Assembly: GCA_965153355.1 (NCBI GenBank)
Contig: OZ231126.1
Location: 24,738,001 to 24,802,000, forward strand
Source: Flaccisagitta enflata
Lineage: Eukaryota
Direction: 5' to 3'
Length of the DNA: 64,000 nt
Part shown: positions 1-25,838 of the stretch, one piece after another
How positions within the stretch are numbered: the stretch's first letter is position 1
How the letters are laid out: each line of letters opens with the position of its first letter
Made by a program: the position numbers and the translations under genes
The notes under the pieces: model-generated
Seen by the model: only the letters and a program-made list of their open reading frames with translations
Told to the model about the DNA's origin: nothing
Databases searched by the model: none

Positions 1-478
1 GATTTTCTAAGCATTTTAACACAATTCTTTTGCATGAAAGCACGATAACTTATCCTGCTGAAATTGGATTTCCATAAATACCTAAGTAAATGTTATGTTC
101 TCCTTTTTGCTTTAGTTGTAATCCCAATGACTCAGAGACTATGAAATCAACCAAGAAAATGTAACCAAGGCGTTTGGTGTTTGTATTAAGAACCAAAAAT
201 AAGATGAAAAAACCTCCCAATGTATCTGAATAGAGACTTTATTACTTAAAGCAAAAACTTTTAAGAAACAAGATCCATTTTTTCATCATTTTTCAATTGG
301 AGTATCAATTTTATTTTGCTTGTCATTTCTAAACGCCTTGAGCTAAAAGGATGCGGTTTGCAGCACCTGGTCAGAAATTCAAAGTAGTTTTAGAATCTCA
401 CTGATTTTTATATAAATTTCTTATTTTAAACAGAGTTCTTGCCCAAAATGCCTGTCGATATACTTATGTTCTAGATAG
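1..478. mobile_element. Right-hand part of a MITE truncated by the window start
   Basis: Ends CTAGATAG|TA, the same terminus as the MITE at 5085-5677. AT-rich interior. Confidence 0.45.
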
Positions 479-551
479 TACATATCTGGTATGTCTGTCC
501 ATATTTCTGTCTTTGGGTTTCAATTCTTGTCTTCCTTCTTACATACATAAC

Positions 552-674
552 TATCAATCGCTAACTATCTATCTATGTATCTATCCTTCTATCAATCCAT
601 CCATCAATCCATCCATCCATCCATCCATCCATCCATCCATCCATCCACCCGTCCATCTATCTATCTATCTATCA

Positions 675-745
<71 letters not shown>

Positions 746-765
746 GCTCTATCTACCTATCAAAA

Positions 766-828
<63 letters not shown>

Positions 829-842
829 AAAAATCTATCTAT

Positions 843-883
<41 letters not shown>

Positions 884-940
884 AATCTATCTATCTATCT
901 ATCTTTCGCTCTATCTACCTATCAAAATCTATCTACCCAT
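552..940. repeat. (ATCC)n/(ATCT)n microsatellite
   Basis: Direct reading. Confidence 0.95.
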
Positions 941-987
941 CTGTCCTTGATTCATTTTGCTTGATTTTTCTAGCAATTTATTTTCGT

Positions 988-1032
<45 letters not shown>

Positions 1033-1620
1033 ATTCATGCGATAATCAAATAGTTTTTTCACGGTTTGAGTGGAAGGGAGCGGCGATTTGAAATTGGATT
1101 AGCCAACCCACAATCATATCGTGTTCAGTTTCAGTGGACAAGCCACTTTTCAAATGCGAGGAGGAGTTACGTGGGTCGTTTTATGCTTCTATGGAGGAGG
1201 TATCTAAAGTCCGAAGTATCTAAAGTATCTAAAGTATCTAAAGTATCTAAAGTACAGTGCTCTTTGGGATTGTAAGAAATTTCGTTCTACGTATCGGCCA
1301 GTCTGTCTGTCTGTCAGTTTGCCTGTCTGTCTGTCTCTCTGTCTGGCTGTCTATCTGTCTGTATGTCTGCCTTTCCATTTGATTGTTTGCCTTATGGTCT
1401 CTCTCTCTTTCGCTCTCTCTCTCTTTCTCTCTCTCTCACTGTTTCACTCTCTTTGCTTGCTTTATTTCTCTCCCTACATCCTCGGCTTTCCTTCCTCAAC
1501 CAACTCTGTAACGCAGATGGGAGACTTTGCATCATTATCATTTTGTTTTCCTCAAATGAGAAAAAGTCGTGAGCAGAGAAAATGACAAAAGGACAAAAGG
1601 GTGTCTCTACGGGTGTGGAG

Positions 1621-1724
<104 letters not shown>

Positions 1725-1791
1725 AAATTAGAATGAGAATTAGAATGAGAATTTGAAATACAATAAATCTAGGTTTAGGAAACCTTAACTA

Positions 1792-2385
1792 CAGGGTCAT
1801 CAGCCTAAGATGCCGGATTCTGTTAAGCTTTTACTCATATACCCTTGATTTCATACTGATTGTCTCTTAAAGAGCATAATTTGACGTTTTTTGTATCAAA
1901 ATTTCATCCAAATCGGTTAAGTAGTTTAGATTTTACAAGTATTTGAAGTAGAAACTAATTTTCCCTCAATGGCAGAATTTTCAATAAAAATTGAGAGAGA
2001 GAGCATTTTTAAATTTCTCTCTTTTTTCAACTTTTTGAGCTGGAATGGTCTAGTATGAAAAAAAAAATTGATGTAGTTTCAAAAATTTGTCAAATCATCT
2101 TTTATTTAGGACTAATCTCATGATTCTGGCTCAAAATATTGCAAAATGAGAAAATGGGAAAAAAGACTGTTCCTCCATTTTCCAAAGAAAAAACAGAAGC
2201 GGCGAAAAAGAAGTTTTTTACTTAATTAGATGTAAAATCTAAATTACTTGACCGATTTTGATGAAATTTTGAAACAAAAAACGTCAACCTATACTCTATA
2301 AGAGACAATCAGTTTGAAATCCGTGACATTTGGCATCTCAGAGTAAAAGCTTAACATTATCCGGCATCTCAGGCTGATGACCCGG
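1792..2385. mobile_element. TA-flanked foldback MITE (Tc1/mariner-type termini)
   Basis: TA|CAGGGTCATCAGCCT... and ...AGGCTGATGACCCGG|TA with long imperfect inverted arms. Confidence 0.85.
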
Positions 2386-3196
2386 TAAAGGGTTTATAAA
2401 AAGAAAAAAAGAGAATTGGAGAGCTACATGCAGACAGAATAAAAGAGAGGAGTCAATGACAGAAAAGAGACCGGCAGAGAGAAAGTACTAACAGAGACAA
2501 AGCCAAATCAGACAAGTAAGGAGGAGGAGGAGGTGAGGAGGAGACAGCTAGAAAGACAGACTGACGGACAGACAGACAGGCAGACAACCATCCAGATAGA
2601 CAAAGCTCGAGAGAAAAGTGAGCCAAAAGAAAACAAATACGTGCACAAACGGATCTAAACAATAACACCACATTCTGCATTTTCCCTCTCTTTCTTTCTA
2701 TTTCTCACTCTCTCTCTCTCTGTTTTTCTTCTCTTTCAAAAGAAAAATTGTTCTTTCTTTGCCTGGATGTGAATAAATCATTTTCTTCTTATTTTTCATT
2801 CCTTCGCCTTCCTCGATTATTTCTTTCTGCCATTTTCGATTCTCTGGGGTTTCTTTTTCGTTTGTCTTGTTATTTTTTTCAACAATTCACATCTTTATTC
2901 TCGCTGTTTTTGTTGGGACTTAACTTTTCTTGGCTTTTTCAAATTTTTCATTCGTATTGTTGATGCATGAGAGAATTTGTTGACCTACGGTTTTATTTGA
3001 ATGTAATCGACAATCAATGGATAAATCATTAAAAAGATGAATGTTTAAATAAAAAAAAATATTGGTATACTTTTTGCTTGTTTTCTTGCTCCACCGCTTC
3101 TTAAATCAGGTGCCTCCTTCTTTCATTACCCATCACCTCCTTTCTGATTTTTCCCTTTTCAGACTTCTTAATGAAAATCATGTTCTCTGAAATTAC

Positions 3197-3815
3197 GACG
3201 TCAAATCTGCCAGGGAAAATTAAGTGCTTCATCCCACTTTTGCATCAATAATGGACTAATTATCCATCCACAAATGTTTTTATTTCTGAAGTTGTCACTG
3301 GATTTACTTAATATGTTGATCTGTTTCATATTTCACGCTTTAAATCGCCTTTTGATAAGCAATTCTCGCGGTAAATGGCAAGAAAATGAACATATATACA
3401 TTTTTAGTGAAATTTTGTTGACATTTTTTTTTTATTTCTGAGGTCGAAAATATAAGAAGGCTACACCCAGAAAAAAATTTGCATTTTCAAAAACATGGTT
3501 CTCTCTATAAACGATTTGGGAAGAGAACTATGTTCTTTGTTTTTTCCTTTTTTGATTTTCTATGCAAACTCATTATTTCGACCAACCCCTTGTCAGTGAC
3601 AAAAAAGAAATTTGTAGAAATTTTCAGTAAATTCTTTTCAGTAATTTAAGCTAAAGCTGAGTCTTTTTCTAAATGGACGCATATTTTGCTTTCAAATATC
3701 ATGTATGTCATATCTTAGTCATTTTTATTCACTTGTTTTTCTATTTTCACTCATGTATGTTTTCTATTTTGACCCATTTTGATACCCTAAATGTTGGCTT
3801 CGTGGGCACGCTGTC
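3197..3815. mobile_element. ~620-bp interspersed element, with homologous copies at 24605-25838 in the opposite orientation
   Basis: Shares AATCTGCCAGGG...TTGGCTTCGTGGGCACGCTGTC with the 24.6-25.8 kb copies. GAC...GTC ends. Confidence 0.8.
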
Positions 3816-3904
3816 TTACATTCCATCTCCAAACTCTTTACCTTTTCCTCTTTCTCCCTCACTTTTCCTTACCGCTCCCTCCATCCACTTGGTCCTTTCC
3901 TCCT

Positions 3905-4835
3905 CTCTTTTCGAATTGTTGGTAAGGTCGTATTTCCATCGTCGACTCATTGCTTATTTGTATTGTAGGAATGATGGTATTCACTAATCCCTCCTTTCCC
4001 CCCTCTTTGTCTTCCTCCTTTCTTTCCTTTCTATCCCTTTTTTCGGCTTTTTGGTAAGGTCGTCGACTCATTACTTGTAGGAATGATGGTATTCATCACT
4101 CCTTCCTTCCTCCCTTGCTCTCTCTTCCTTTCCTACCCTCTTTCTACTCCTCCTTTCTTCCCTTTCCTCCCCTCTTTTTCGGCTTGTTGGTAAGGTCGTA
4201 TTTTCATCGGCGTCGACTCATCACTTACTTGTAGGAATGAAGGCATTCACCAGTCCATCCTTTCCCCCTTGTTCTCCCTTCCGTTCCTAACCTCTTTCTC
4301 CTCCTCCTTTCTTCCCTTTTCCTTCCCTCTTTTTGTTGGTAAGGTCGTATTTCCATTGTCGACTCATTACTTACTTGTAGGAATGATGGCATTCAACGGT
4401 CCTTTCTTTTCCCCTTATTCTACTTTCTGTTCCTACCCTCTTTCCCTTCCTCGTTTCTTTCCCTTCCTCCCCTTTTTTCGGCTTGTTGATAAGGTCATAT
4501 TTCCATTGTCGACTCATTACTTACTTGTAGGAATGATGGCATTCAACGGTCCTTTCTTTTCCCCTTATTCTACTTTCTGTTCCTACCCTCTTTCTCCTCC
4601 TCTTTTCTTCCCTTTCCTCCCCTCTTTTTCGGCTTGTTGGTAAGGTCGTATTTCCATCGTCGACTCATTACTTACTTGTAGGAATGTCGGCATTCAACGG
4701 TCCTTCCTTTTCCCCTTATTCTACTTTCTGTTCCCACTCTCTTTCTCCTCCTCCTTTCTTCCCTTTCCTCCCCTCTTTTTCGGCTTGTTGGTAAGGTCGT
4801 ATTTCTATCGTCGACTCATTACTTACTTGTAGGAA
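3905..4835. repeat. ~150-bp minisatellite, about 6-7 units
   Basis: Core TTGTTGGTAAGGTCGTATTTCCATCGTCGACTCATTACTTACTTGTAGGAATG recurs at ~135-150 bp spacing with pyrimidine-rich spacers. Confidence 0.9.
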
Positions 4836-5084
4836 GGGCGACATTTAGACGAATGGAGTCTCGCGGCCAACTCCGTAATTCTTTCTCTTCCGCACCCAAA
4901 AGCCACACAATGAATGAGACAAACTATTTCTGTTTTTCATTTTCTCTTATTTCTTTTCTTTTGGTGTAATCTTTCTTTAAATATCTTTTTCTCGCTTAAA
5001 CACTTTTCTCACTTGTTACATGTTACTTCAATACCACATTCGGCTACTCATCTTTTTGCGTTTTAACTAGGTCTATGCATATCA

Positions 5085-5677
5085 CTATCTTGGAAATATG
5101 TTTGGAAGTACCTTTAAAGAGGAATATCTCTACTTCCCGTTGAGATAATTAAGAAAAATTTATAAGCATTTTAATCTAGGTCAAAAAATCTACAATCTGA
5201 GTGCAATCTCGTCCCTGTGCATCAAACTACTTAGAAATGCCATCAGTTTGAAGTTGATCATGCACTTTCAAAAATGGCATAAAAAGGAGGATTTCTTTTT
5301 TCTCCTACCCTTCAATCTTTGAATTGCTCTCAAATTTTACCAAAAAATGGTGAAAACATGCGGATTGCAGCACTGGTTAGCTCTTGAGCTCTTGTTTCAT
5401 AACCTCATGGATTTCAAGTCAGATTTTGAAAGGGAAGTAGCCCAAATTTGCAGCCAAAATGACCAAAATATACCATTTTTTCCACAACCTCCTCTTAGTT
5501 GTGATAAACAAACCAAACATGCGGTTCCTTAATTGGATTGAAAATTGTTTTTCTCTTTTGTTCTAATTAGTATGAATACAAAAATAGCCAAAACCAATCA
5601 GGTGTATAAGTTTGGAGTGCATAGGAGGGAAAACATACTACAAACCCAAAGTGCTTCCAAACTTTTTTCCTAGATAG
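5085..5677. mobile_element. MITE with ~30-bp terminal inverted repeats
   Basis: CTATCTTGGAAATATGTTTGGAAGTACCTT ... AAGTGCTTCCAAACTTTTTTCCTAGATAG|TA. Confidence 0.75.
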
Positions 5678-6456
5678 TACAACTTGCAAGAGCATCTTTT
5701 TCATACTGGAATTCAAATATCGCCGCGACTCTCATCTTTGATTTTCTCTTCATAACAATTTCATTTCCTCAATTTTAAGGAAACTATATGCTTAAACATT
5801 GAAGACTGGTGAAAAATCGAAGAAGGGAGTTGTTAAGTTAATGTCCCTCTAAAAAAACTATCGTTTTTGCCTTTCCGTTTAAGCTTTAGAAAATAAAAAC
5901 CTAAAGATTAACATATTTCAAAATCATTGAAAAAAGCAAGGTAACACCCCTTTTCTTGGCTATCTCAGGGGTACTCATTTTTATACATGCAAGGTTACTG
6001 CTTCCATTAATAAGAATGCAGAATTTTTGACCCTAAAAAAACAAAACATTAGACTGTTTTCAGTATGAAATGTATTTTAATTGATAAACAACCCCAAAAT
6101 ACATAAAGATCTACAACGAATGCGTGATCAGTGAAAAATGACCTCCCAAAGATTTCATGAGGGTATTACCAATCAGCATTATCTTTGAATCCAAGTTTTG
6201 TTGAAGCTTAGGGCGATAGAGATAACATCGGGAGCAAGTGGCATGGAGCCCTTCAGTTTCGAAAAAAAATTCAAAAGAAAAATGATTTATGCCCGAAGGA
6301 ACAAAAAAAGAGAGAGAAAAAAAAAAGAATTTGTACTTATAGTCTTGAGAAAGAGTGGTAGAAAAAGTTAAGAGACGATTCAGAATGAGAAAAAGTGCGC
6401 AGTGTTCAAGAGAGAGAGAGAGAGAGACAGATGAAGGCGGGAAATAAAAAAGGTAC

Positions 6457-6727
<271 letters not shown>

Positions 6728-7130
6728 AGCAGATAGCAAGAAAGAATAAAGACACAGAAAGATAGAAATGAAAGAAAGGAGGGAGAAAGAGATGAATAAT
6801 CGTTTCCAGACAGAGGCTGAAAAAACGGGTTTAATTTCCTCTCAGGTCTCAGATCCATGTATCACTGTCCGGTGGCTTCTATACGCGTAACACAAGAAGG
6901 AAAAGTATAAACAAGAATCAACTACTGAGCTGCCCATTTGGAATCTAGTGATCCAATATTATTTACTTGTGGAAGAAATATAAGGCCATATTTGCACGGT
7001 AGATTCAGTCAACCGCGGTTGAGCAGGGTCAGTGAGGCTTTATGATGCAGTGAAAGCTACAAAGTATAGGGAATGTTAACGCAATAAGGTGAGTACACGA
7101 ATCTACTCTTGTTGGTGTATAGCGGCAACA

Positions 7131-7325
7131 TTTTTAGTCGCGTGCACGCGACTCTACAACCCGCTCTGTCCATCTGTCGGTCCGTCGGTCCGTCGGTAAC
7201 ACTTTGCTTTTTTGGCGCTTATGGGCGGTTTTGGAGTTACTGCTCTTGCCCAAAAGCTCGGTTTGTTTTTTTCTTCACCGCCCCTACCCAACCGCACACG
7301 ACTTGTGTCACGGTATGGCCTTGTT
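7131..7325 (+). mobile_element. DINE-1/HINE-like element, family A
   Basis: TTTTTAGTCGCGTGCACGCGACT palindromic subterminal repeat, GTCY/GTCG tract, partial repeat CACACGACT, and a GGCC-TTGTT end. Confidence 0.8.
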
Positions 7326-7465
7326 TTTCTATTGGAGAAGTGTTGATGCCAACGTGCCATGGAAGCTGGGAGATGATGTGAGAAATAAGGGGAAAAATAT
7401 TTCAAGAATCCGAGCTGTAAATAAAGCTTAGGGGAAAAGAAAGATAGAGAAAATAATGACAAGAA

Positions 7466-7591
7466 AACAAGGCCAAGTAGGCCAATAGGTGCGACGTGTG
7501 GATCGTCGAACGAATGCGTTACAGACCGACCAACCAACCAACCAACCGACGGACACAGCCAGTTATAGAGGTGCTTTGTCGCACCTAAAAA
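7466..7591 (-). mobile_element. HINE-like short element (same subfamily as 13474-13595)
   Basis: AACAAGGCCAAGTAGGCC 3' stem-loop, AGGTGC..GCACCT subterminal palindrome, GACC/CAAC tract. Confidence 0.75.
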
Positions 7592-7640
7592 AGAAAGGGA
7601 GAAACATGGCGCAACAAAAGAAGAACTGCAGAGCAGAAAA

Positions 7641-7806
7641 AACAAGGCCGGATACGCGTGCGGGTGGGCAGGGGCTATATTTGAGGTCACCAGACAATTT
7701 GGACAGGAGCAGTGAGGTCAAAGAAATAAAATCATAAAAAAAGTAAAGTGTGACCAACCAACCGACCGACCGACCAACCGACCGACGGACAAAGCGGGTT
7801 GTAGTC
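7641..7806 (-). mobile_element. 5'-truncated HINE family A copy
   Basis: AACAAGGCCGGATACG... with a GACC tract and AAAGCGGGTTGTAG. Confidence 0.65.
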
Positions 7807-8810
7807 ATTGCAGAGTCTACGGAAAAGAAGCCACATGAATGAAAAAAGATAATAAATAGAAACGGAGAGGAGAAAGATGGCAAGGGGGGGGGGGGGGGTG
7901 TAAATCTAACAACAATGTGAGAGACAACCAGTTGCTACGAAGATGTCAATGAGGAAGGACAAAAATGCACAAGGAAGAACAGACTTAACAGCAAACAGAA
8001 GGAACAAATGAAAAAGCAATTTCTGAAGAAGACAAATTATCATAAGACTTAATAACAACTGAGTAAATCTGGGCTATAAAGTATTTACCGCGTTATACCA
8101 AGTCAGCTGGAAAAAGACGCAAGGTCAGATTTAAAATGAAAAAAGAAATAAGGGTAAAAAGAAAAGGAACGGTTAGAATCAGGAACTATGACCAAGTTTT
8201 CGCCGCATTCAAATTAATTCGTGGCGCGTTTTTTCGGAGAAGCAATGACTTGAAAAAGGTTGTTAACTAATTTGCCACGCGTAAGACTGTCGTCGGGTTG
8301 TCAGCAAGCGTCATGTAACAATAGACACTGTATCAAGGCATGATTATCTGCAGACAGATGGAATCTATTTATTGGGCCTAATGTTTACGACCATAAGTCA
8401 TCCGTTTTCCTCAAATCAATGATTTTCGGGGCATTTAACCTTGCCGGACAAAATGTATTTCTATTCATTTTTTCTAGCCCATTGCCTCTTCCCTAGGCCA
8501 GAAACAGTGCAAAAATTCCACCAGTAAAAAACCGGTAATGATTAACCGAGATGTTAAAGAGAAAAAAAGTCGACGACGATGCAGTAAATAAACAACAAAT
8601 GTGTTGAAAGAGATATCGTGGGTTAAAAAAAAAAGAAAGTAAGAGTATAGGAAACGGAAAGAAGCAGCAAAAAAACGGTTCTCATTATTTTCTCGATCGC
8701 GCCTCTCATTTTTCTTTCCTTCGTCTCTCCGTTTCCATTGATAATGAATATCCAGTCAGAAGCAAAAAGATCCATTACTCACTTTCCTCCTTTCTCTGTC
8801 TGTCTTTGTC

Positions 8811-8863
<53 letters not shown>

Positions 8864-9040
8864 TTTTTGCTTGTTCGCCTACCATCATGGTGTTGGCATT
8901 TCTTTTTTTAACTATTCGGGATTGGGCATACAGTGGCTCAAAATATTAAAACATTCAGAATATTTCACTTCAGCATCCAACGCAAAACACCTCTCACATA
9001 CCCCTCATTCAAAACCCATTGACCGTTCATACTGTTTTTT

Positions 9041-9128
<88 letters not shown>

Positions 9129-9130
<2 letters not shown>

Positions 9131-9338
9131 TTTTAGTCGCGTGCACGCGACTCTACAACCCGCTATGTCCGTCGGTCGGTCGGTCGGTCCGTCCGTCTGT
9201 CCGTCCGTCCGCGTTAGCTTTTTCGGCGTTACGGGCGGTTTTGGCGTTACTGCTCCTGCCCAAATGCTTGGGTAAGCCTTTATCATCACTGCCCCTGCCC
9301 ACCCGCACGCGACTTCGGCTCGTGTATACGGCCTTGTT
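9129..9338 (+). mobile_element. HINE family A copy
   Basis: TTTTAGTCGCGTGCACGCGACT...(GTCG/GTCC)n...GCACGCGACT...GGCCTTGTT. Confidence 0.85.
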
Positions 9339-10013
9339 ATCCTTTTCCTCCGTGTGTTTTACTCGCTATCGACGTCGTTACGCGTTACATCATTTCCTTC
9401 GTTTCTATTGGCTGTTTTGTCTTCTTCGTTCTTTTTTCTGATTGGAACGTTTTTAGTCACGTGATGTTCAGCTGACGTGAAGGCTCGCAACGTTCATCCT
9501 TGGGCTTGCTCCATCGAACCATGGCTGATCGAATTGGGATGTTGGACCAAAGCTAAGGCAAAGGTGGGGATGTTGGACAAAGGTGCAAGGGCTTAGGTGA
9601 GGAAGATTCTTTGGGTAGGCGAGAACGTATGAAAGAGGCACAGGAAAAAGTGGTCTATTGGTAGTGAGGCAGCGGCTAGGCCACACTGCCTATTTGACGG
9701 TACCCCCATGGTAGTTTGGAAGGAATCGATCAAAGAGCACATCTTCCAGAAAGATATTGATAGCTTCCAAAGAAATTGAATTACATCTGTTGTATCAATC
9801 AACAAATTGTTGTGATGAATATATTCCAGCTGTTAGTCTGTCCGTTTCCACTGGGAATATCAGATGATTTTCTTGGCCTTGTTTTGTTTGAACTTGAATT
9901 AAACTCAAAAGCATTTTACTGATTTTCTATCGCATCCACCTGACTCAATACGTTGCTGTGTTGGACCTTCGTTCCATATTTCATCTTATGGTAACGCGGC
10001 GCGTACGACTATA

Positions 10014-10575
10014 TATGATAACGGGAAAAGAGGGGGTCAGTGGAGAATGCCCAAAAGGGAACAGAAAGAGAAAGTCGCCTGCCAGTAAGACCCTGCCCTG
10101 CCTAAAGAAGGAAGACCTGAGAAGGGCCCGCGGGTAAAAGTGTCCTGCCAAACCTCAGTCTAGGCAAAGGGGGTATATATCAAGACCCAGAATCCTCATG
10201 AAATGAGCTGACTTAAGCAGAGCAAAGGCAGCTCGCTGTCATGACTGCTAAAGGGGAGGGGGAAAGACTCAAGGGATGCCCTAAATGCTCAAAGGACATG
10301 ACCACTGGGCCACAGGTCCCGATAAATGAGCAGAAGAAGTGAGAGGTGTGTCCTAGAAAATGGGTGGGGAAACCTCTGCCAGATGCTAGACCAGAGATGC
10401 AGAAGTCAGGAAAGAAGAGCAGAGCAAATGGGGAAGATGAAGCAAGCAGCAGAGGAGGGAAAGAGCAACAGCCAATCAGGAGGAAAGAGAAGCTGAGGAG
10501 GCAAGGTAGTGAGAGCCAGAGAGCAGAAGGACCTGTAGCAGTGAGCTAGCTAGAGGCAGAGGTCCCCGTACTACA
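10014..10575 (-). repeat. 3' LTR
   Basis: Direct repeat of 16864-17425, preceded on the - strand by the PPT. Contains a CCAAT (~10472) and a TATATA (~10175). Confidence 0.93.
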
Positions 10576-10590
10576 GTTACTCCCCCTCTC
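10576..10590 (-). other. Polypurine tract
   Basis: The - strand reads GAGAGGGGGAGTAAC immediately before the 3' LTR TG. Confidence 0.8.
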
Positions 10591-12560
10591 ACGAAGACGA
10601 CGTCCTCGGCGTCTAAACCTAAGCCCAAATCTAAACCGGAACCCCTCAGTGACATGGCGAGATATGCAGAGCAAACGCACCAAGCTGACTGAGATCCAAA
10701 CCCCCAGCTAACAGTATGTATGTAAGCAGTGTTCGCTATGAGTCCTTGCCCGTGTGGTTTGGCACTGGGCCAGGCAAATACAGGCTGGACTCTAGTCGTC
10801 AGTTTAGTCAGCATGTGTAGTCAGCACAAACAGGCAAATACACATCCAAAACCGAATATATCACAAACCCAATAAAAGCAAGGTCCCATGGTGCGTGCAC
10901 CACACGGGAATAGGTACACAAAAAAAAAGTGAGCACTCCGTCACTTGGGAAAAGTAAGTCGGAGCACAAAAAGACAAAACCGCATAAAATGCCGCCGGGG
11001 TAGGGAGGGGGGGGGGGGGCATAAATACCACAAGCCAACGCGAAGGCGAACAATCCCAAACACCAATAGCACAACTACGAGCGCGAACAAGAAACCACGG
11101 GGGGGGGGGGCGGGGGCAAAAAAAAAAAAACTACCCATGCTAGGGCATGAACGCGGGTCAATGCAGAGAACCTGATAGTGAACGATGACAGCGGCACGAC
11201 ATGAACATCAAAACTATTTAGCCACCCAGCCAACTCACCGCCGTACAAAAGTAACGCAATAATCAACGAAGGGCGAAAAATGTGAAAAAGCAATATCACA
11301 AACAGTTAACAATGTGACAAGCTTGTATGCAAACAAGCAACGAGAAGGCAATCAAAACCCACGTATTCACTCCAGTCAGAAACGGTAGAAAAGATGAGCT
11401 CGGAGCCCAACGAATCCAATCACGTCGCATAGTGCCGCCGGAGGGCTGGCTGTAAAAACGTAAACCTAATGACTAGGTTCGTGATGCCGCCACCATCGCC
11501 GTTGAGTTCCGCATGTCCATATTAGCATGCCCAAGGTGAATAACGGAATGAGCGCCCATGATAGCACGCCTAATGTAAATGGAAAATAACACCATGCTAA
11601 AAGTTATATAAACATAAATAAGCAAAAAAAATCAGTCAAAGCAAGGGCATTGACAGAGCCAAGCCCAAACGCTGGACTACAATTAGAATAATTCATGTAC
11701 ATACTTGTATGTATCAATAACCGGCAAAACAAAAGAGAAAGCAACGGCAAAAACAATAACAAAAACGAACGAGTCAACAATAATAAAAACAAAAAAGCGA
11801 AGGGCAGAGAGAGCGGGAAAAAACAAAGCAAAGCAAAGAAAAGAGAATAAACGAGAAAAAAAAAACAAAGGCAAAAGAAAAGAAATTAAGATAAGGAAAG
11901 AACGAAAAGGAAGAGAAAAGAAAGAGCAGAGGATAGCGAGCGGAAGAAATAAGAGGGGAGAATAGAGGAACAAACAAAAGAGGGAAAAGAGGGAGAGAAA
12001 GGGAGAGAAGATAAGAAAGAAAAGAAAAGAAAGAGGAGAACAGAAAGAGAAGGAAAGAGAGAAGGGCAAGAAATGAGGAAAGAGGAAGAAAGGGAGAGAA
12101 AAAGAGTGAGAGAAAGAAATAAAAGAAACAAGCGATACAAACGTAAGTGGCGGCGGCGTCGTAGTCGAGCCCGAAATTGTGTCATAAAGTTGAGGCGCGC
12201 ATCGTTCCCATTGTGGTCGAGGTCGAAGTCGAACACAAATCCCAAAGTTGAATGTTCGGGGCCCATCGCGTAGCCGACATAAGGGATTCGAACATCTGCG
12301 TACACCTGTGTAGTTAAACCTTGCCAACAAGACGAAAATCAGTGTATGACAGACAAAACATTCAAATCACAGAAATAGAGGGACGGACTAGCCGACATTG
12401 CAACACCGGCAACCGCATTACAGACTGACAAGTGTCTCCTGACTTACGCCACTGGAGATAGGTAAACAAACAGACAAACAAAATACCTCAGACAGAACAG
12501 AGCGCAACAGGCGAACAAGCAACGAGACACCGCGACATTGCGGCGATGTATCAACACCAC

Positions 12561-12644
12561 ATAATAATAATAATGATAATAATAATAATAGAAACAATAA
12601 TAATAATAATGATAATAATGATAATAATAATGATAATAATAGTA

Positions 12645-12711
<67 letters not shown>

Positions 12712-12775
12712 TAATATATATAATAACAATGATAACGACAACAATAGTAATAATGATAACAATGAAAACAATAAC
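12561..12775. repeat. (ATA)n microsatellite inside the LTR element
   Basis: Direct reading. Confidence 0.9.
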
Positions 12776-13473
12776 AAGAACAAAACAAAAACAAAACAAA
12801 AACAAACGCAACAAAAATAAACAAAGAAAAAATAAACGCACGGCCGACGATTGTACAGACTATCAGCAGTAAAAATCACCCGACAAACAGACACTACCAT
12901 TACAGAAAGAAATGAACAAGCAACGAACGCATAAAACAGTCACACACGCACCCAAAACAGATCCGAGAGACAAACGAACGACCAAGACAAATAAACGAAA
13001 GAGACAGATAGACAAGGAGGAGTCGGCTGTTCATTACCGATTGACTGGATGTATTATCAACTTAATCACCCAGACGCTGGGATTTAATGAACACCTCCAA
13101 ACAGATGGACGGACAAACCAAATTTAGGAGAGAAGTAAAACCAGACAGAAGACAAAGAGGACAGACAAACCGCCAAAATGGAACAGGCAAAAAGAAAGAC
13201 AATCACGGACAAAGGAACAGACGCCGACCTGAGAGGGGACAGACGAATTAAAGGGGACAAGGATCATGTACGCAAAATAGTGTAGACTACATTATTCTCT
13301 ATTTTCTTCAGCTAACCAACGGGGCCGAAGAAGCTGGAGAGATGCGCGGAAATTGTATGTAATACATTAAACATGAACCGACGATTTTGTTTTTACAAAG
13401 GTTACGTCTTTTTATGCAACACTTTGTACATGACAAGAAAGGACCAAACGAAACCCATTTGTTTCCTTTTTCG

Positions 13474-13595
13474 TTTTTAGGTTCGGCAAAGCACCTCCAT
13501 AACTGGCTGTGTCCGTCGGTCCGTCGGTTGGTCGGTTGGTAACGCATTTGTTCGACGATCAACACGCCGCACCTATTGGCCTACTTGGCCTTGTT
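13474..13595 (+). mobile_element. HINE-like element nested in the LTR element interior
   Basis: Reverse-complement homologue of 7466-7591, inserted in a T run. Confidence 0.75.
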
Positions 13596-16500
13596 TCTTC
13601 ACTGTCCGATCTATGATTCCGACCGAAGCCGCTGAATCGAGAAAAGTGAGCCGTGGGACGGACAGGAAAAAAAAAATAAACGAAGGCGCACTGACGAGTA
13701 AAAAAAAATAAAAAAAACAAAACCGACAAGACAGATACAAAAGCCGACAAATGCGTGGAATTAGTCCAAATCGGATATTCCACGCGCTGGTCATCTGACG
13801 AATCATCGGGGGGGGGGGGGGGGGAAAGAAACAGACAACAGCAGACAGAAGAGCAGGGCCAGGAGAGAGACACAGACACAGATATACACCAACAGACACA
13901 GAGCCACCGGAACTTGACATACAGACAGAATAAAAAAAAAAACAGAGGACAAACGAACGAACGTCAAATAAAAAAAAAAAAAAACATCCGCCGATGGATA
14001 AAGACAGGAAAGTGCATAAAGAGGGAAAGAGGAAAGAAAAGGAAAAAGAGAAAAGATGAAACCGGGTATAAAATCAGACAGAGTCAGACAACAAAACAAG
14101 AATCGACAGACCGTCAAAGAGGCCCGCATCCGTACGGATAAAAAAACAACCACGCGGTGAGGCCAAACATCCGTCAACACCAACGCCGCGCCTTCCCATT
14201 TTATCCGTCCAATTTGCAGCCGTCAAGAACGACCCCCACAGGCCACGGGTTTGTGATGGCGGGGGGGGGGGTGTGTGATCGAAGCATCTCTCCGAGTCGG
14301 CCCCCATTCCCTATGCTTGAATTCCGAGCCTTCGCTCAGAGATTCCAGCTAATAGGATTCCCCTCATGCAGCACCTCGAACCCTAAACCTTGGCCTTGAG
14401 TTTGGTGTGCTACTCAGGGTATGGGCCTTTTTTCGATTCTGAAAAAAAGTAGAGAGGGCCAATATCGAGCCCCAATCTCCCGGACATCGCTTCATTCTTC
14501 ATCCGTGAACAGGAAAGGCGCGGAAGTTTTAGCATACTGGCCACCGCCGAAATAAGCCCCGCCAAGGCCCAAGATGAAATGGGCCAAATTCGGGAGGAAA
14601 TTGATCGACAAGGCAATTGGACAGACAGATCAATACAGACAAATCAGAGCGCCACCCCCGGCAGAGCCGCCAAGGTGTAAAACAGACCGACAAAGACGAC
14701 CGACGTAGAAGAGATAGACCAGAGAGAAAAGAGAAAGAAAAGAGAAAAGAAAGAGAAGAGGGACCAGAAAAAGAAAAGAGATAAAGGAAGGAGAGAAGAG
14801 AAGAAAGAAAGAAAAAGAGGAAAAAAAAAGATGTTCAACCAAGGCCGAACCATAGCACCGACGGCAAAAAAAAAACAGACCAAGACACAAACAGACCAAC
14901 AGACAAAAGGGGCCGAAAGAAGAAGGGCAGACATTTGACAGCAGAAGGGACAGATGCAGATGACGGGTGCGGGGGGGAAGAGAAATAGACAGAAAAAATG
15001 CACAAGAACAGACAGAGGCAGAGCGAAAGACGGACAGGCAGCGTCCATTGTCAAATGACTGGATGTGTCATTAAACCATCCAGTCGCTGTGATTTAATGA
15101 ACAGGCGTGAACAGACGCGATGCCGCAGACTATTCCTTCAATTAAGCACGAAAAAGGAGAAAAAAATGCGCGAAAATTGGCGTGGATCCGTCCATTTTAT
15201 TTCTCGCATAGTGTGAGAGACGCCGTTTCCTTTTTCTAAATTCCCCCTCCTCTATTTCTTTTCATATCGCCGAGAAAAAAAAAACACCATCCCCTTATCT
15301 TAGGAGACCGCGCAGTCGAGAGTCCGAGTATGAGGATTCCCCCTTATTTTTCCCTTCTTCAGGCAGGGCCGACATAATTCAGACTCGTAATTGTTGAAAT
15401 CGTTTCTAACGATGCAACAAGCTGACATCGCCGTCTTTACTTGATAATGAAGGGGTAATGCACGAATGAAAGATGGCCCGTCCAGTAGTAGAACAGAACC
15501 AGTGGCCGCCGCCAAACCCGTGAACCGCAGGTGCAGTGTAATATGTCCATCCACCACAATGAATAACAAAAAATAGTCAAAACAGTTACCAGCCCCGACC
15601 CAAATAAATAAAAACCGCGTACATATGCAAAAAAAAAATCACCGAACACAAAAAACCACTAAACACAAAGTGCCAAAAATCCCAGAAAAACCGAAAAAAA
15701 ACCAAAATAACAAAAAAAAAAAAAAAAAAACAACTCAAAACCACCAAAAAACAAAAACACCAAAAATCAGACAAGCAAAAAAAAATTCCAAAAAAAAAAA
15801 CACCCCGGCCAGACCACCCAACCAACAAACCTAAACCCACAATGGCACGCACACATAAAAAAAAACACAAGAAGCAAAGACCCCCCTAAAAAAAATCAAA
15901 CACAAACAATAAAAAAAACAAAAAAAAAACAACAAAAAAAACCAAAAAAATAAAAACAAAAGATTACCAAAAACAGTAAAAAAAAAACAAAAATAACAAA
16001 ATATTAAAACAAAAAATGAAGGAAGAAAAAAAATGCAGAGTACAAGTGAATTGCTCAATGCAATTCACAATAAGCCGAGAACAAGACAAAAGGACTCTAG
16101 ATCAGGAACACCAAAAAAAATAATATAAACATGACAGAGATAGTGTTGACGAGTCCAGACGAGAGAGAAGAGGCCCCCAAGAGCGGGGCAAACAAAAACA
16201 CAAGAGTAAACAAAATATCCTTTGACTTACGCCACTAAGGATTAGTTGACAAAACAGATGAGTCCAGACAGTGATGATGAGGAGTCGAAGTCGTACATCT
16301 TGATTTCTTCAGCTTAAGTCGTGAGTGAGCAATGAGGTGGGCTCGCAACGTAGCCCAACAAGACAAGTTCAAGAGGAGCACCGCTTCCTCCATTGGGCCC
16401 AAGCCCACGCAGAGCTTGTGGAGGGGGGTGTGAGGTAGGAGCTCAGATAGCTGTAAGTCCTACTCGCAATCCAAGGGGAATCTATTACCGGGTCGGCCTA

Positions 16501-16844
16501 GCGCCTGGCCTAGTGCATGGCCGGCTGCTCTAGGCTCCAGTTTCCGGCTTACGTCTACAGGCCTATGCTTACTCGGTCCTTACCCTAGTGCATGGGTGGG
16601 ATTACCTTTCTGCTTCCGACTTAACGGATCAGCCGCCTAGGGAGGGTGTCTTCCTCAAAACAGGTGCCGGGCTAGCATAGAGCCCAGAGAGAGAGAAAAC
16701 TAAAGTAAGAACAAGAGGCCCGGAAGTAAAATGACACCTCAGAGCTGGACCCCAAAACCTAAACAGTAAACAAAAATCTTCCTAGAGAGGTTGGCAGGCG
16801 GATGGGGTAAAAGCTTAAGGCAACAAAGGGGGGAAGCTAATTGC

Positions 16845-16862
16845 TTCCCGGCCGATGCACCA
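16845..16862 (-). other. Primer binding site complementary to the 3' end of tRNA-Gly(GCC)
   Basis: The - strand reads TGGTGCATCGGCCGGGAA. The + strand TTCCCGGCCGATGCACCA equals the 3' 18 nt (with CCA) of the invertebrate-type tRNA-Gly-GCC as I recall it. It lies 1 nt from the LTR end. Confidence 0.85.
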
Positions 16863-16863
16863 A

Positions 16864-17425
16864 TATGATAACGGGAAAAGAGGGGGTCAGTGGAGAATGC
16901 CCAAAAGGGAACAGAAAGAGAAAGTCGCCTGCCAGTAAGACCCTGCCCTGCCTAAAGAAGGAAGACCTGAGAAGGGCCCGCGGGTAAAAGTGTCCTGCCA
17001 AACCTCAGTCTAGGCAAAGGGGGTATATATCAAGACCCAGAATCCTCATGAAATGAGCTGACTTAAGCAGAGCAAAGGCAGCTCGCTGTCATGACTGCTA
17101 AAGGGGAGGGGGAAAGACTCAAGGGATGCCCTAAATGCTCAAAGGACATGACCACTGGGCCACAGGTCCCGATAAATGAGCAGAAGAAGTGAGAGGTGTG
17201 TCCTAGAAAATGGGTGGGGAAACCTCTGCCAGATGCTAGACCAGAGATGCAGAAGTCAGGAAAGAAGAGCAGAGCAAATGGGGAAGATGAAGCAAGCAGC
17301 AGAGGAGGGAAAGAGCAACAGCCAATCAGGAGGAAAGAGAAGCTGAGGAGGCAAGGTAGTGAGAGCCAGAGAGCAGAAGGACCTGTAGCAGTGAGCTAGC
17401 TAGAGGCAGAGGTCCCCGTACTACA
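16864..17425 (-). repeat. 5' LTR
   Basis: Direct repeat of 10014-10575. Begins TGTAGT on the - strand and is followed by the PBS. Confidence 0.93.
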
Positions 17426-19550
17426 CTATACGTCAGAGGCAGGGAAAAGGGGGAAACGGGGAATGAATGATTCAATGATTTGACCTTTTCTCTTTCCTCC
17501 TCTCCCTCCATTTCAATCCGAATCCTTCTTTGTTCTCTCCCCCCACCCCCACCCCCTTCCTCTTTTTTAAGCTGTGTTGGAAGAGGCAATCGTCTAGGGA
17601 AGGGTCGGGGGCGCGGTCTCGGTCTTTCGCTTTCGCTTTCAAAATGGTGCCAGAGTCATCAGTATGCATTAGAGAGCGGCTAGAGGGAGGTTTCCATGGA
17701 AGAAAGGAAAACAGACAAGGCTCCAAATTAGCGTTTACATAAGAGCCCCTCTTCTTCTGCTTCTTCTTCTCTATTCGTCTCTCCCACGAAAGCGAACCTC
17801 GCCAGACCTCTTTTTTTTCTTTTCTCCTTTTAAAATGCGGCCTTCTCTTCTCTTTTTGGCTTTTTCCTTTTTTAGGCATTTTTTGCGTTTAGCCACGACC
17901 ATTAAGGAGGAGTGAGGAGGAGTATAAGGTGAAGGGCAAGAGGGTTTGAAGAGGGGTGGACGGGGGGGGGGGGGGGTTAGCCAAAGAGAAGAAAGGAGTT
18001 AGAGACATTTCATATACATACTGTACAGGTTAAGAGAGTGTGGTGAGAATCAAAGCTGTCGGTAATTTGCCGAACATTTCTTAAATCGATATACTCTAAG
18101 CAAACAAAGATGAAACACTGTCAGCAACAATATAGGCTATTAGAATGACAAGTGGAATAATAACCCTCACTTTAACTAAACCGAAACATAGAGGAGGGCC
18201 TTTTGAGCCCTCACTGACTAGTTACTACGCGTATTAACACCCCTCTCAAAGTTAGGCGAACTGGGATCAGAACAAGTCTGAAAATGCTTTGTAAATCACT
18301 TATTAAGAGTCTGAGTGTTAAGGTTACTTTGAAATATGTAATTTCCGGCAGGGTTACAAAAAAAACTGTCCAAAGAATGTCAACCAAAGGCTCCGAATCT
18401 CTTCTTTTGATTGATATCATACTGCTGTATTTTTTATGAAAGTTCTGAATTGACCAGTGAAACCAACTTATTTGTCAATGGATTTAGGTGCTTTGCGGGG
18501 CTGTTCCATAATCCCAATACGTCATCGTTGCTTGGTAGTTATCTAACAACTCGGGAATGGCAGTTTTTGCCCTACTTATATGGGAAAAAATGAGTAGGTT
18601 TGTGCAGTCTCCTCTTTAGACGATTTCTTGTCAAAATCGGTCAAAATCTTTTACCACATTTTTGACATTGCACACAACTAGGGCCACACACCAGCGCGAA
18701 TGGCCTATTTGGCCTCGGTTTGTGAAAATACTATGTTTTAGCTATCTATGCGTCAAATTTCAGCCCTCTCAATGCATTTTTACTCTCGATTTTGATCTTT
18801 TTCCCAGTTCGTTTAATTTTGAGAGGTGTGTTACTCCGAGTTTTCCATTTAGCAAAACTAACTTAGCAAACAACCACTCTGAGTCTAGACCAAACCATTA
18901 ATGCTTACTAAATAGATAATGCATCAATTATCTTTAATTTGATCCAAATCGACGGCCATCCTGGTAAGACCGGCAGAGTGATTGGAGTGGAGATTTTTTT
19001 GACTCAAGTCACAGATTTAGGCAGCTCTTGACGGAAAAGTGACACATGATTGTAAAATACTGTTGGACGGAAAAGTGAATGATAAACAGACAGCGTCCAT
19101 TTTACGGGCAACAGATGAGCGAGATGATCGACTATCGGCACGGCACGGACCGGACTAAATCACAAACCATCATGCATATTTTTTCTATGTTTACAATTAA
19201 CAGTCAAGAGTAGAAAATGAGCCCCAACGATCCTCTCCACGATAAACTATCTCAATAGCCATGTAGACTTCCGAATTACTTAGCATGGATTCCAGGGAAC
19301 GCTATCACACTAACCCATGGAGCAGTATGTCATTGAGGGAAAAAAGACAGGCAATGTCCGTCGGCCGGCCAGCGTATGACGGTGGGGCAATGTATGACGG
19401 AGAAGCGGCGTTCGTCGGAAGGGAACGCCCTCCCATCTTTTAAGCTTTTTTCCATCTTTTTTCCTTCGCCGGAGATGTCGGGAAAATCCATTAAGCTTCG
19501 ACATTAATGCCGTCTTTTTCTCTTTGTTTTTCTCCGGGGATTCCCAGCTT

Positions 19551-24604: not shown

Positions 24605-25838
24605 ACAGCGTGCCCACGAAGCCAACATCTAGGGTATCAAAACGGGTCAAAATAGAACATATGACAGCGTGCCCACGAAGCCAACATTTAGGGTATCAAA
24701 ATGGGTCAAAATAGAATATATACATGAGTGAAAACAGAAAAACAAGTGAATAAAAGTGATTAAGATAAGACTTGCATGATATTTGAAAGCAAAATTTGCA
24801 TCCATTTAGCAAGAGACTCAGATTTAGCTTAAATTACTGAAGAATATTTACTGAAAATTTCTACAAATTTCTTTTTTGTCACTGACAAGGGGTTGGTCGA
24901 AATTATAAGTTTGCATAGAAAATGAAAAAATGAAAAAACAAAGAACATAGTTCTCTTCCCAAATCGTTTTTAGAGAGAACTATGTTTTTGAAAATGCAAA
25001 ATTCTTCTGGGTGTGGCTTTCTTATAATTTCGACCTGAGAAAATAGAAGAAAGTGTCAACAGAATTTCACTAAAAATCTTCATTTTCTTGCCATTTTCCG
25101 TGAGAATTGTTTATCAAAAGGCGATTTAAAGCGTAAAATATGGAACAGACATACATATCAAGTGTATCTAGTGACAATTTGAGCAATGATGACATTTGTG
25201 GATGGATAGTTAGTCCATTATTGATGCAAAATTGGGGTGAAGCGCTTCGTTTTCCCCTGGCAGATTTCACGTCATATACATGAGTGAAAATAGAAAAACA
25301 AGTAAATAAAAAAGATTAAGATAAGACTTGCATGATATTTGAAAAGCAAAATTTGCATCCATTTGGCAAGAGACTCAGATTTAGCTAAATTCACTGAAGA
25401 AGATTTACTGAAAACTTCTACAAATTTCTTTTTTGTCACTGACAACTGACAAGGGGATGGTCGAAATTTTAAGTTTGCATAGAAAATGAAAAAATGAAAA
25501 AAACAAAGAACATAGTTCTCTTCCCAAATCGTTTATAGAGAGAACTATGTTTTTGAAAATGCAAAATTCTTCTGGGTGTGGCTTTCTTATAATTTCGACC
25601 TGAGAAGATAGAAAAAAATGTCAACAGAATTTCATTAAAAATCTTCATTTTCTTGCCATTTTCCGTGAGAATTGTTTATCAAAAGGCGATCTAAAGCGTA
25701 AGATATGGAACAGACGTACGTATCAAGTGTATTAAGTGACAACTTTTGCAATGATGACATTTGTGGATGGATGATTAGTCCATTATTGATGCAAAAATGG
25801 GGTGAAGCGCTTCATTTTTCCCTGGCAGATTTCACGTC
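24605..25838. mobile_element. Copy of the 3197-3815 element with internal tandem duplications
   Basis: 24605-24661 is repeated at 24663-24719, and ~24716-25273 is repeated at ~25274-25838. Confidence 0.85.

Follow-up and report, generated by a model that had tools for sequence, protein, structure and literature searches.

The window analysed here, a 64,000-nt stretch of DNA from Flaccisagitta enflata, contains a 7.4-kb LTR retrotransposon that carries two small hairpins, H1 and H2, both on its sense (-) strand. The 5' LTR (16864..17425, - strand) is part of a 563-nt sequence that is 100% identical to 10575-10013, the last base being ambiguous between LTR and TSD, and the 3' LTR accordingly occupies 10014..10575 (- strand). 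The TSD TATAG is present upstream (17426..17430, - strand) and downstream (10009..10013, - strand), an 18-mer PBS starting with TGG, TGGTGCATCGGCCGGGAA, follows directly 3' of the 5' LTR (16845..16862, - strand), and a polypurine tract, GAGAGGGGGAG, lies 4 nt ahead of the 3' LTR (10580..10590, - strand), all of these being read from the sequence. The PBS putatively matches the 3' end of a tRNA-Gly(GCC); the 64-kb window itself contains no tRNA gene. By eye, the 5' LTR also contains an ATATATA resembling a TATA box (17030-17024, - strand) and an ATTGG resembling an inverted CCAAT box (17326-17322, - strand), and a canonical poly(A) hexamer is absent from the LTR.

The internal region of 6288 nt (10576..16863, - strand) is non-coding: ten long frames (nine sense, one antisense) gave no credible domain, the best match (E 0.18) staying under the cut-off. 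Its sense strand consists of 40% T and 16% A and is interspersed with SSRs and low-complexity tracts. With no coding domain found, the element is apparently non-autonomous and looks LARD-like. It shares with LARDs the possession of LTRs, TSD, PBS, polypurine tract and an extended internal region that lacks gag-pol, and differs from them in that the internal region is T-rich and laden with SSRs, in that the host is a marine eukaryote, and in that its autonomous partner was not seen. The retrotransposon is young. Because the LTRs are fully identical, TSD, PBS and polypurine tract are present and the tested frames are devoid of coding domains, the element must depend on signals acting in cis. Two DNA runs of the organism (X1 and X3) show the element's family to be very abundant, and it also occurs in a marine metagenome (X2). 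Likewise, the leader containing H1 is multi-copy in both runs of the organism and is found in the marine metagenome; among the variant places listed (40 of 164) none falls within 16217-16242, the expectation for these 26 nt being about 0.5.

H1 (16217..16242, - strand; AUCCUU-AG-UGGC-GUAA-GUCA-AAGGAU) comprises a 6-bp basal stem, an AG bulge, a 4-bp upper stem with one G.U pair and a GUAA loop, with the apex at 16236-16223 and the loop at 16230-16227. H2 (12435..12458, - strand; UCUCC-AG-UGGC-GUAA-GUCA-GGAGA) has a 5-bp basal stem below a 14-nt apex (12453-12440, loop 12447-12444) identical to that of H1. In both, the upper stem reads U-A/G-C/G.U/C-G and the GNRA-type GUAA loop is closed by C-G. 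H1 is situated in the leader, beyond the PBS and about 620 nt past the 5' LTR, while H2 lies outside the leader, about 4.4 kb from the 5' LTR and 3.8 kb from H1. Re-reading confirmed the sequences and coordinates that a preliminary description had given for the two hairpins, as well as its central observation of an apex occurring twice without a single difference, which is real.

The recurrence of the apex exceeds what chance provides. The 14-mer AGTGGCGTAAGTCA occurs in the window only at 16236-16223 and 12453-12440 (- strand), and these two sites remain the only matches when up to two mismatches are allowed (expected 0.16; two or more matches in 0 of 100 shuffles). No complex exact repeat within the internal region is longer, a shared 14-mer being expected there about 0.07 times by hand estimate. 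Whether the 14-mer brings complementary flanks with it, as the preliminary description implied, was assessed against its matches in IMG/VR viral contigs: those listed comprise 112 loci, from which three with flanks shorter than 10 nt were dropped, leaving 109 chance occurrences. Not one of these 109 has four or more consecutive flank pairs, as against six in H1 and five in H2, all of them Watson-Crick, and complementarity beyond chance is therefore upheld. A generic descriptor (at least 5 bp of basal stem, a 2-nt 5' bulge, 4 bp and a GNRA loop) matched three sites when both strands of the window were scanned, H1 and H2 among them, compared with a mean of 0.34 in block shuffles. Taken together, the shuffles, the status of the 14-mer as longest repeat, the flank comparison and the descriptor scan show that the motif is not a product of chance.

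Searches for further members, in the window and in public metagenomes and viral contigs, added none to these two copies. A covariance model built from H1 and H2 did not yield a third member within the window; the hit ranking next scored 12.9 bits (E 1.6). When the apex was combined with pyrimidine/purine flanks, the pattern was absent from viral contigs and matched four metagenome loci (GC 0.53-0.64), each of which is mismatched within the first three pairs, i.e. at chance level. A 36-nt stretch of the LTR and a 34-nt stretch of the leader had no matches in viral contigs, so that neither the flanked pattern (metagenomes and viral contigs) nor the LTR and leader stretches (viral contigs) yielded relatives outside the organism. 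Rfam gave no match at the gathering score over the whole window, and at E up to 5 over 9900-17600 only four weak matches, none of which overlaps H1, H2 or the modules S1 and S2 described below.

Thermodynamic folding favours the sense strand. H1 is predicted to fold with -8.3 kcal/mol (z -4.3) and H2 with -9.2 kcal/mol (z -3.6), while their + strand versions reach just -3.6 and -4.9 kcal/mol and lose the upper stem, which bears out the earlier claim that the G.U pair and the GUAA loop are workable on the - strand alone. The two copies differ in their behaviour in longer sequence contexts: H1 retains pair probabilities of 0.46-0.70 in 4 of 4 contexts, whereas those of H2 drop to 0.01-0.22 in 3 of 4, and enforcing H2 costs 1.9 kcal/mol relative to a competing alternative pairing. 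H2, by these predictions, lacks robustness when folded together with more of its surroundings.

Comparison of the two copies reveals where they diverge. The apex differs at 0 of 14 positions and the basal stem at 7 of 12, the chance of all seven changes landing in the basal 12 being about 0.001 (hand calculation), and outside the hairpins the surroundings of H1 and H2 share only about 53% identity. Counted downwards from the bulge, pairs 1-3 read U-A/U-A/C-G in H1 but C-G/C-G/U-A in H2 and so amount to three adjacent double transitions; pairs 4-5 (C-G, U-A) are the same in both, and pair 6 is A-U in H1 and A.C in H2. The full exchange of the basal stem that had been proposed is hence overstated, since two pairs are unchanged and the sixth exists in H1 only, and it is the replacement of the three contiguous pairs that holds. 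All six changes in these compensatory pairs are transitions, so that for each pair a U.G intermediate is feasible on the - strand only, and both basal stems are perfectly Watson-Crick without wobble. Pairing is retained in 95% of cells, compared with 25-45% when the partners are slid by 1-3 columns; a shuffle control on pairing gave 58 of 500, a test in which two copies cannot reach significance.

A second duplicated module occurs between the hairpins. S1 (15042..15103, - strand; -26.5 kcal/mol, z -3.4), a rod-like hairpin with AUUAAA, has a paralogue with 71% identity, S2 (13028..13093, - strand; -24.8 kcal/mol, z -3.1), and all 20 of 20 pairs are kept in both by means of four wobble changes and one double change. 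This conservation of pairs suggests that the internal region contains further structured RNA. The order H-S-S-H does not fit a single tandem unit composed of H1+S1 and S2+H2.

These comparisons bear on the possibility that the hairpins have no function at all. They could be relics of an old internal duplication, whose arms were made complementary again by a mutational process instead of selection, for instance template switching in DNA replication or in reverse transcription, the identity of the apex reflecting a short conversion patch or luck. Such an origin would explain why the three compensatory pairs adjoin one another and why the basal stems are free of wobble, as if one arm had been copied from the other, and it would sit well with a sample of two copies of which H2 is weak in longer contexts. 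Template switching has indeed been reported to give rise to hairpins and to maintain them, with changes that look compensatory (PMC8794818 / 10.1101/2021.04.15.439925). However, the scenario requires a 14-nt island with no change next to a stem changed at 7 of 12 positions, with pairing restored in both copies; the copying of an arm would not be expected to keep the G.U pair in the upper stem, comparable flanks are found in 0 of the 109 listed random matches of the 14-mer, and S1/S2, too, keep their pairs in a strand-consistent manner. We regard an origin without function as unlikely.

The twin hairpins, two copies having been compared, are probably a recognition signal on the RNA of the element. 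Our preferred explanation, which we hold tentatively at a probability of roughly 0.4, is that H1 and H2 act in cis as an RNA stem-loop recognised through the sequence of its apex, the likeliest reader being a Gag or host protein supplied in trans. H1 and H2 would then be paralogues: a short stem-loop present twice in the genomic (sense) RNA of an LTR retrotransposon devoid of coding capacity, with an apex (AG bulge, upper stem and GUAA) preserved letter for letter and a basal helix preserved as a helix only. An apex fixed in its letters above a basal stem fixed merely as a helix is what marks a site whose apex is read, by its sequence, by a trans-acting factor. Since a non-coding element must recruit the Gag of a partner for packaging and copying, the Gag/nucleocapsid of the autonomous partner would be the likeliest ligand; alternatively, a host RNA-binding protein involved in export or stability may be bound. 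The location of H1 within the leader and its stability in all four contexts speak for a stem-loop read by its sequence. Against it counts that the compensatory pairs, all three side by side, may go back to one mutational event. Similarly, a role in packaging is weakened by the location of H2, packaging signals being unusual as far as 4.4 kb past the 5' LTR, and the Gag reading by the fact that GNRA loops are compact and atypical as nucleocapsid ligands. The earlier proposal of a selected RNA motif thus stands in part: the contrast between apex and basal changes, the pairing in both copies, the G.U pair and the strand asymmetry support it, whereas the number of two copies, the single contiguous block and the outcompeted H2 detract from it. 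That selection keeps the motif, which ligand it has and at which step of the life cycle it acts are points that we infer. The twin hairpins are, in sum, a well-founded lead and not a demonstrated function.

Several known systems resemble a stem-loop of this kind. At the TAR-type sites and the MS2 and PP7 operators, the apex is read by sequence and the lower stem is needed merely as a helix. These sites likewise possess a purine bulge on the 5' side, separated from the small loop above it by about 4 bp, yet they have no sequence relationship to H1/H2, and the analogy is one of design only. Retroviral and phage packaging hairpins are read by capsid or nucleocapsid protein, and the gammaretroviral packaging double hairpin, for example, has conserved GACG loops. 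They resemble H1/H2 as repeated small stem-loops with a common apex on variable stems, at least one of which is in the leader; unlike them, H1 and H2 have a loop of GNRA type, are 3.8 kb apart instead of adjacent, and their binding partner is unseen. Dispersed packaging-signal hairpins are described from ssRNA phages (PMC4751978). Non-autonomous LTR retrotransposons can occupy large parts of genomes, and an exact apex on exchangeable stems in an abundant family would offer a compact, mutable handle on the recognition of such 'parasites of parasites'. To our knowledge, RNA signals for borrowing the proteins of another element are almost unknown beyond a few cases in plants and yeast.

A different reading, absent from the preliminary description, starts from the observation that the loop, read on into the 3' stem for two bases, gives GUAAGU, the consensus hexamer of 5' splice sites, with would-be cuts at C16231|G16230 and C12448|G12447. 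H1 and H2 would accordingly be masked U1 snRNP sites resembling 5' splice sites, held partly closed by the hairpin in the manner of the splice donor in retroviral leaders. They would act either as attenuated donors or by recruiting U1, which would keep the long non-coding transcript from being cleaved and polyadenylated prematurely. On the sense strand of the internal region, for which composition predicts 1.18 GTAAGT, the hexamer (GURAGU, +1 to +6) is confined to H1 and H2, once in each, and a random 14-mer would contain it about 0.2% of the time (hand estimate). Moreover, H1 lies in the leader past the PBS, where the major donors of retroviruses are located, and the sense strand is A-poor, with one AATAAA and two ATTAAA. 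In HIV-1, the SD hairpin masks the major 5' splice site and its structure is backed by base-pair co-variation (PMC4974535). Foamy viruses suppress polyadenylation in the LTR through U1 at the major donor (PMC3694450), and U1 is presented as a general suppressor of polyadenylation (PMC3826338). The likeness to the HIV-1 SD hairpin consists in a short leader hairpin past the PBS with a 5' splice-site sequence complementary to U1; the differences are that here a coding region and a known acceptor are lacking, that the exon side is off consensus and that a second copy occurs 3.8 kb downstream; a role as splice donor is putative.

Several points weigh against the U1 site. The hexamer was spotted post hoc, many motifs having been checked, and the exon side reads GGC in H1 and H2 alike, whereas the consensus at this side ends in AG. 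In addition, there is no ORF in the element for splicing to serve, the stability of the hairpins (-8 to -9 kcal/mol) would impede the binding of U1, neither a loose end nor a GT..AG joint at the site is among the rows listed, and the LTR, inspected by eye, has no canonical poly(A) hexamer needing suppression. We thus consider a U1 site improbable as the explanation of the two hairpins, which would also serve to test whether a site of the U1 type aids the survival of a long non-coding retroelement RNA.

The GUAA loops could finally dock in receptors of the same RNA, for example in the S modules, and thereby compact the 6-kb RNA, a proposal built on loop-receptor rules. Closure of GUAA by C-G and the presence of two H and two S modules on one RNA are in its favour, but no receptor motif was identified and a role confined to the loop gives no reason for a letter-exact bulge and upper stem, which renders a tertiary contact very improbable. 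Somewhat less remote, and still quite doubtful, is a combination of these ideas, in which the retrotransposon would ride on its autonomous partner by means of dispersed tags (the bulged GUAA hairpins together with the S modules) that recruit Gag at multiple sites, with GUAAGU doubling as a U1 site that preserves the long A-poor transcript.

Some familiar motifs were rejected by eye on the usual rules. An iron-responsive element is contradicted by CAGUG being present in H2 only and by the wrong loop size, and a kink-turn by the absence of tandem G.A pairs; a sarcin-ricin/loop E motif was rejected as well. The match to a Pol III box A is limited to AGTGG and that to U1 snRNA, considered as a fragment of it, to just 6 nt, and a recursive splice site is contradicted by the 4 nt that separate the AG from GUAAGU. 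The 10-nt direct repeat GTCTGGACTC on either side of H1 (16269 and 16160) is attributable to chance, about 19 shared 10-mers being expected per 6.3 kb by hand estimate.

The - strand carries two copies of a GUAA-loop hairpin, H1 (16242-16217, AUCCUU-AG-UGGC-GUAA-GUCA-AAGGAU) and H2 (12458-12435, UCUCC-AG-UGGC-GUAA-GUCA-GGAGA), which have in common a 14-nt apex made up of an AG bulge, a 4-bp upper stem and the GUAA loop. Across the 64-kb window this apex is found twice and no more, even with up to two mismatches permitted (0.16 expected), and two or more matches occurred in 0 of 100 shuffles of the window. No longer exact repeat outside low-complexity sequence exists within the internal region of the retrotransposon that hosts both copies, for which a hand calculation gives about 0.07 shared 14-mers expected in 6.3 kb. 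A generic descriptor (at least 5 bp, a 2-nt 5' bulge, 4 bp and a GNRA loop) returned three sites when both strands of the window were scanned, H1 and H2 among them (block-shuffle mean 0.34). The null for pairing of the flanks came from viral contigs in which the 14-mer occurs by chance (at least 112 loci, of which 109 with 10-nt flanks were kept and three dropped); none of these 109 among the matches listed had four or more consecutive flank pairs, versus six in H1 and five in H2.

The motif is genuine, specific to one strand and not a product of chance. Indeed, the claim of the preliminary description that the fold works on the - strand was upheld: there H1 folds at -8.3 kcal/mol (z -4.3) and H2 at -9.2 kcal/mol (z -3.6), whereas the + strand versions reach only -3.6 and -4.9 kcal/mol and lose the upper stem. 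Pair probabilities of H1 are 0.46-0.70 in all four wider contexts (+/-50, 100, 150 and 250 nt), while those of H2 are 0.01-0.22 in three of four longer contexts and 0.34-0.48 at +/-250 nt. The competitor of H2, in which an upstream segment pairs with the apex and the 3' arm, beats the H2-enforced fold by only 1.9 kcal/mol, inside the error of such predictions.

The basal stem below the bulge had been described as fully exchanged between the copies, which holds for three pairs that differ and still pair, but not for two that are identical, nor for a sixth that is formed in H1 only. At the three pairs adjoining the bulge both bases differ by transitions (U-A, U-A, C-G in H1 versus C-G, C-G, U-A in H2), the next two are C-G and U-A in both copies, and the sixth is A-U in H1 versus A.C in H2. 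Aligned in register, six of the ten pairs are thus invariant, three changed on both sides and one broken in one copy, and 95% of cells pair, compared with 25-45% when the partners are slid by 1-3 columns; the shuffle control for this pairing gave 58/500 and cannot reach significance with n=2 sequences. By hand calculation, the distribution of changes (0/14 in the apex versus 7/12 in the basal stem) would arise at random with a probability of about 0.001, and six transitions in ten positions would complete three pairs in about 5% of cases. A non-selected origin, ranked third among the explanations and considered improbable, would combine an old duplication with a template switch that re-made one contiguous block complementary; template switching is reported to generate hairpins with seemingly compensatory changes (PMC8794818).

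Both hairpins are placed in a biologically sensible manner, within the internal region (10576-16863) of a 7.4-kb LTR retrotransposon, H1 being situated in the leader that follows the 5' LTR. The LTRs (5', 17425-16864; 3', 10575-10014; both -) are 100% identical over 563 nt, and the element is flanked on either side by a TATAG duplication. A primer-binding site of 18 nt starting with TGG (-) directly follows the 5' LTR and presumably matches the 3' end of tRNA-Gly(GCC), and a polypurine tract (-) lies 4 nt before the 3' LTR; because of this layout the - strand is the sense strand, as had been assumed at the outset. No tRNA genes were found in the window. The internal region (6288 nt; sense strand T 40%, A 16%) is rich in short tandem repeats throughout, and since none of ten long reading frames examined (nine sense, one antisense) has a credible Pfam match, the element appears to be non-autonomous and LARD-like; its sequence also points to a recent insertion. 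A 7-bp palindromic hairpin, GGGAAGC ... GCTTCCC (16850-16826, -), overlaps the primer-binding site in its 3' part. An 18-codon ORF on the - strand (16298-16242, ATG at 16298) ends in a TAA stop (16244-16242) that overlaps the first base of H1, and no frame continues downstream of it.

The family is very abundant, as follows from summed word depths in two DNA runs of Flaccisagitta enflata, X1 and X3, which are about 20,000-140,000 and 13,000-60,000 for the LTR and about 1,400-9,900 and 400-8,500 for the leader, the LTR being about ten times commoner than the adjoining leader. The leader was likewise found in a marine metagenome (X2) at a depth of about 10-83. Contigs from all three were aligned to 16020-17480, the H1 side, at 80% likeness or more, the stretch between the two hairpins being interrupted by long SSRs. 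Many of them exit the LTR about 10 nt short of its end with heterogeneous continuations, which together with the LTR depth points to numerous solo LTRs, or to LTRs of this kind enclosing other internal sequences. Raw reads of one poly(A) RNA run (X9) yielded no alignments there, a zero that carries no weight as a test. Among the best-supported 40 of 164 variant places, none falls in 16217-16242 (about 0.5 expected in 26 nt), the closest being 16204, 16248 and a 16250 insertion; these 40 occur about once per 47 nt in the leader, so that their absence from H1 is neutral as to its conservation. At several places, e.g. 16418 and 16839, the copy in the window is unlike all aligned contigs.

The same internal region harbours a further duplicated module, S1 (15103-15042, -) and S2 (13093-13028, -), with 71% identity over about 100 nt and rod-like hairpins of about 62-66 nt (-26.5 kcal/mol, z -3.4, and -24.8 kcal/mol, z -3.1). 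All 20 predicted pairs are kept in both copies, with four one-sided wobble changes and one double change, and slid controls are 30-46% paired. The predicted strand preference is weak, because the + strand folds too (-24.7 and -21.9 kcal/mol). The internal region has just two ATTAAA hexamers (AUUAAA in the RNA), one in S1 and one in S2, and the order on the RNA is H1, S1, S2, H2. This module raises the prior for kept structured RNA modules in this non-coding body and is no test of H1/H2 themselves.

A covariance model of the H1/H2 pair recovered both members (43.7 and 42.8 bits) and yielded no third in the window, the next-best match having 12.9 bits (E 1.6). At gathering score the whole window had no Rfam match, and 9900-17600 gave four weak ones (E up to 5), none overlapping H1 or H2. 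Viral contigs contained neither the apex with pyrimidine/purine flanks nor matches to the LTR and leader stretches. Four metagenome loci with such an apex and flanks are all GC-rich and mispaired within the first three basal pairs, and were dismissed as chance level. A literature search on packaging hairpins of non-autonomous LTR retrotransposons and on GNRA tetraloops in LTR retrotransposons returned nothing pertinent.

Cis-acting stem-loops of retroelement RNA are a known sort of thing, and H1/H2 are a new example; a function is plausible, on the basis of two copies. The first-ranked candidate, to which we assign a probability of roughly 0.4, is a binding site for Gag/NC or a host protein. 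Between the copies the apex is fixed in sequence, including bulge, G.U pair and loop, and the basal helix as a helix alone, a pattern shown by sites where a protein reads the apex; this reading is placed first because a coding-free element would have to rely on borrowed proteins for recognition. That the GNRA loop serves as a tertiary contact ranks last and seems very remote.

In both hairpins GUAA and the next two bases form GUAAGU, a short motif which we take to be the consensus 5' splice-site/U1 hexamer, and within the internal region its only two sense-strand occurrences (1.18 expected from composition) are those in H1 and H2. The major donor of retroviral leaders is reported to lie inside a masking hairpin (PMC4974535), and U1 at such donors to repress LTR polyadenylation (PMC3694450, PMC3826338), and a masked U1 site is accordingly a concrete alternative. 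We rank it second and regard it as doubtful, however: the hexamer was noticed post hoc after many motifs had been checked, its exon side, GGC, departs from consensus, there is no ORF to benefit from splicing, and among the joints listed for the aligned contigs none is a GT..AG joint at the site.

The window as a whole is eukaryotic and dense in microsatellites, extremely so, with repeat units of two, three, four or more nucleotides recurring every few kb, besides long homopolymer C/G runs and blocks with strong strand skew. It has no long ORFs beyond low-complexity translation, and the ORFs of at least 150 aa included no recognisable protein-coding gene. A dispersed repeat with plentiful GTCCGTCG-like units occurs at 13599-13460 (-), inside the internal region of the retrotransposon, and in opposite orientation at 7461-7606 (+), with 86% identity over 146 nt; translations near e.g. 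34.3, 48.6 and 57.3 kb hint at additional ones. Finally, two long inverted repeats with arms about 21 kb apart, 3472-3826 / 24652-25006 (355 nt, 92% complementarity) and 3213-3398 / 25071-25256 / 25636-25821 (186 nt, 83-85%), are probably oppositely oriented copies of another dispersed element.
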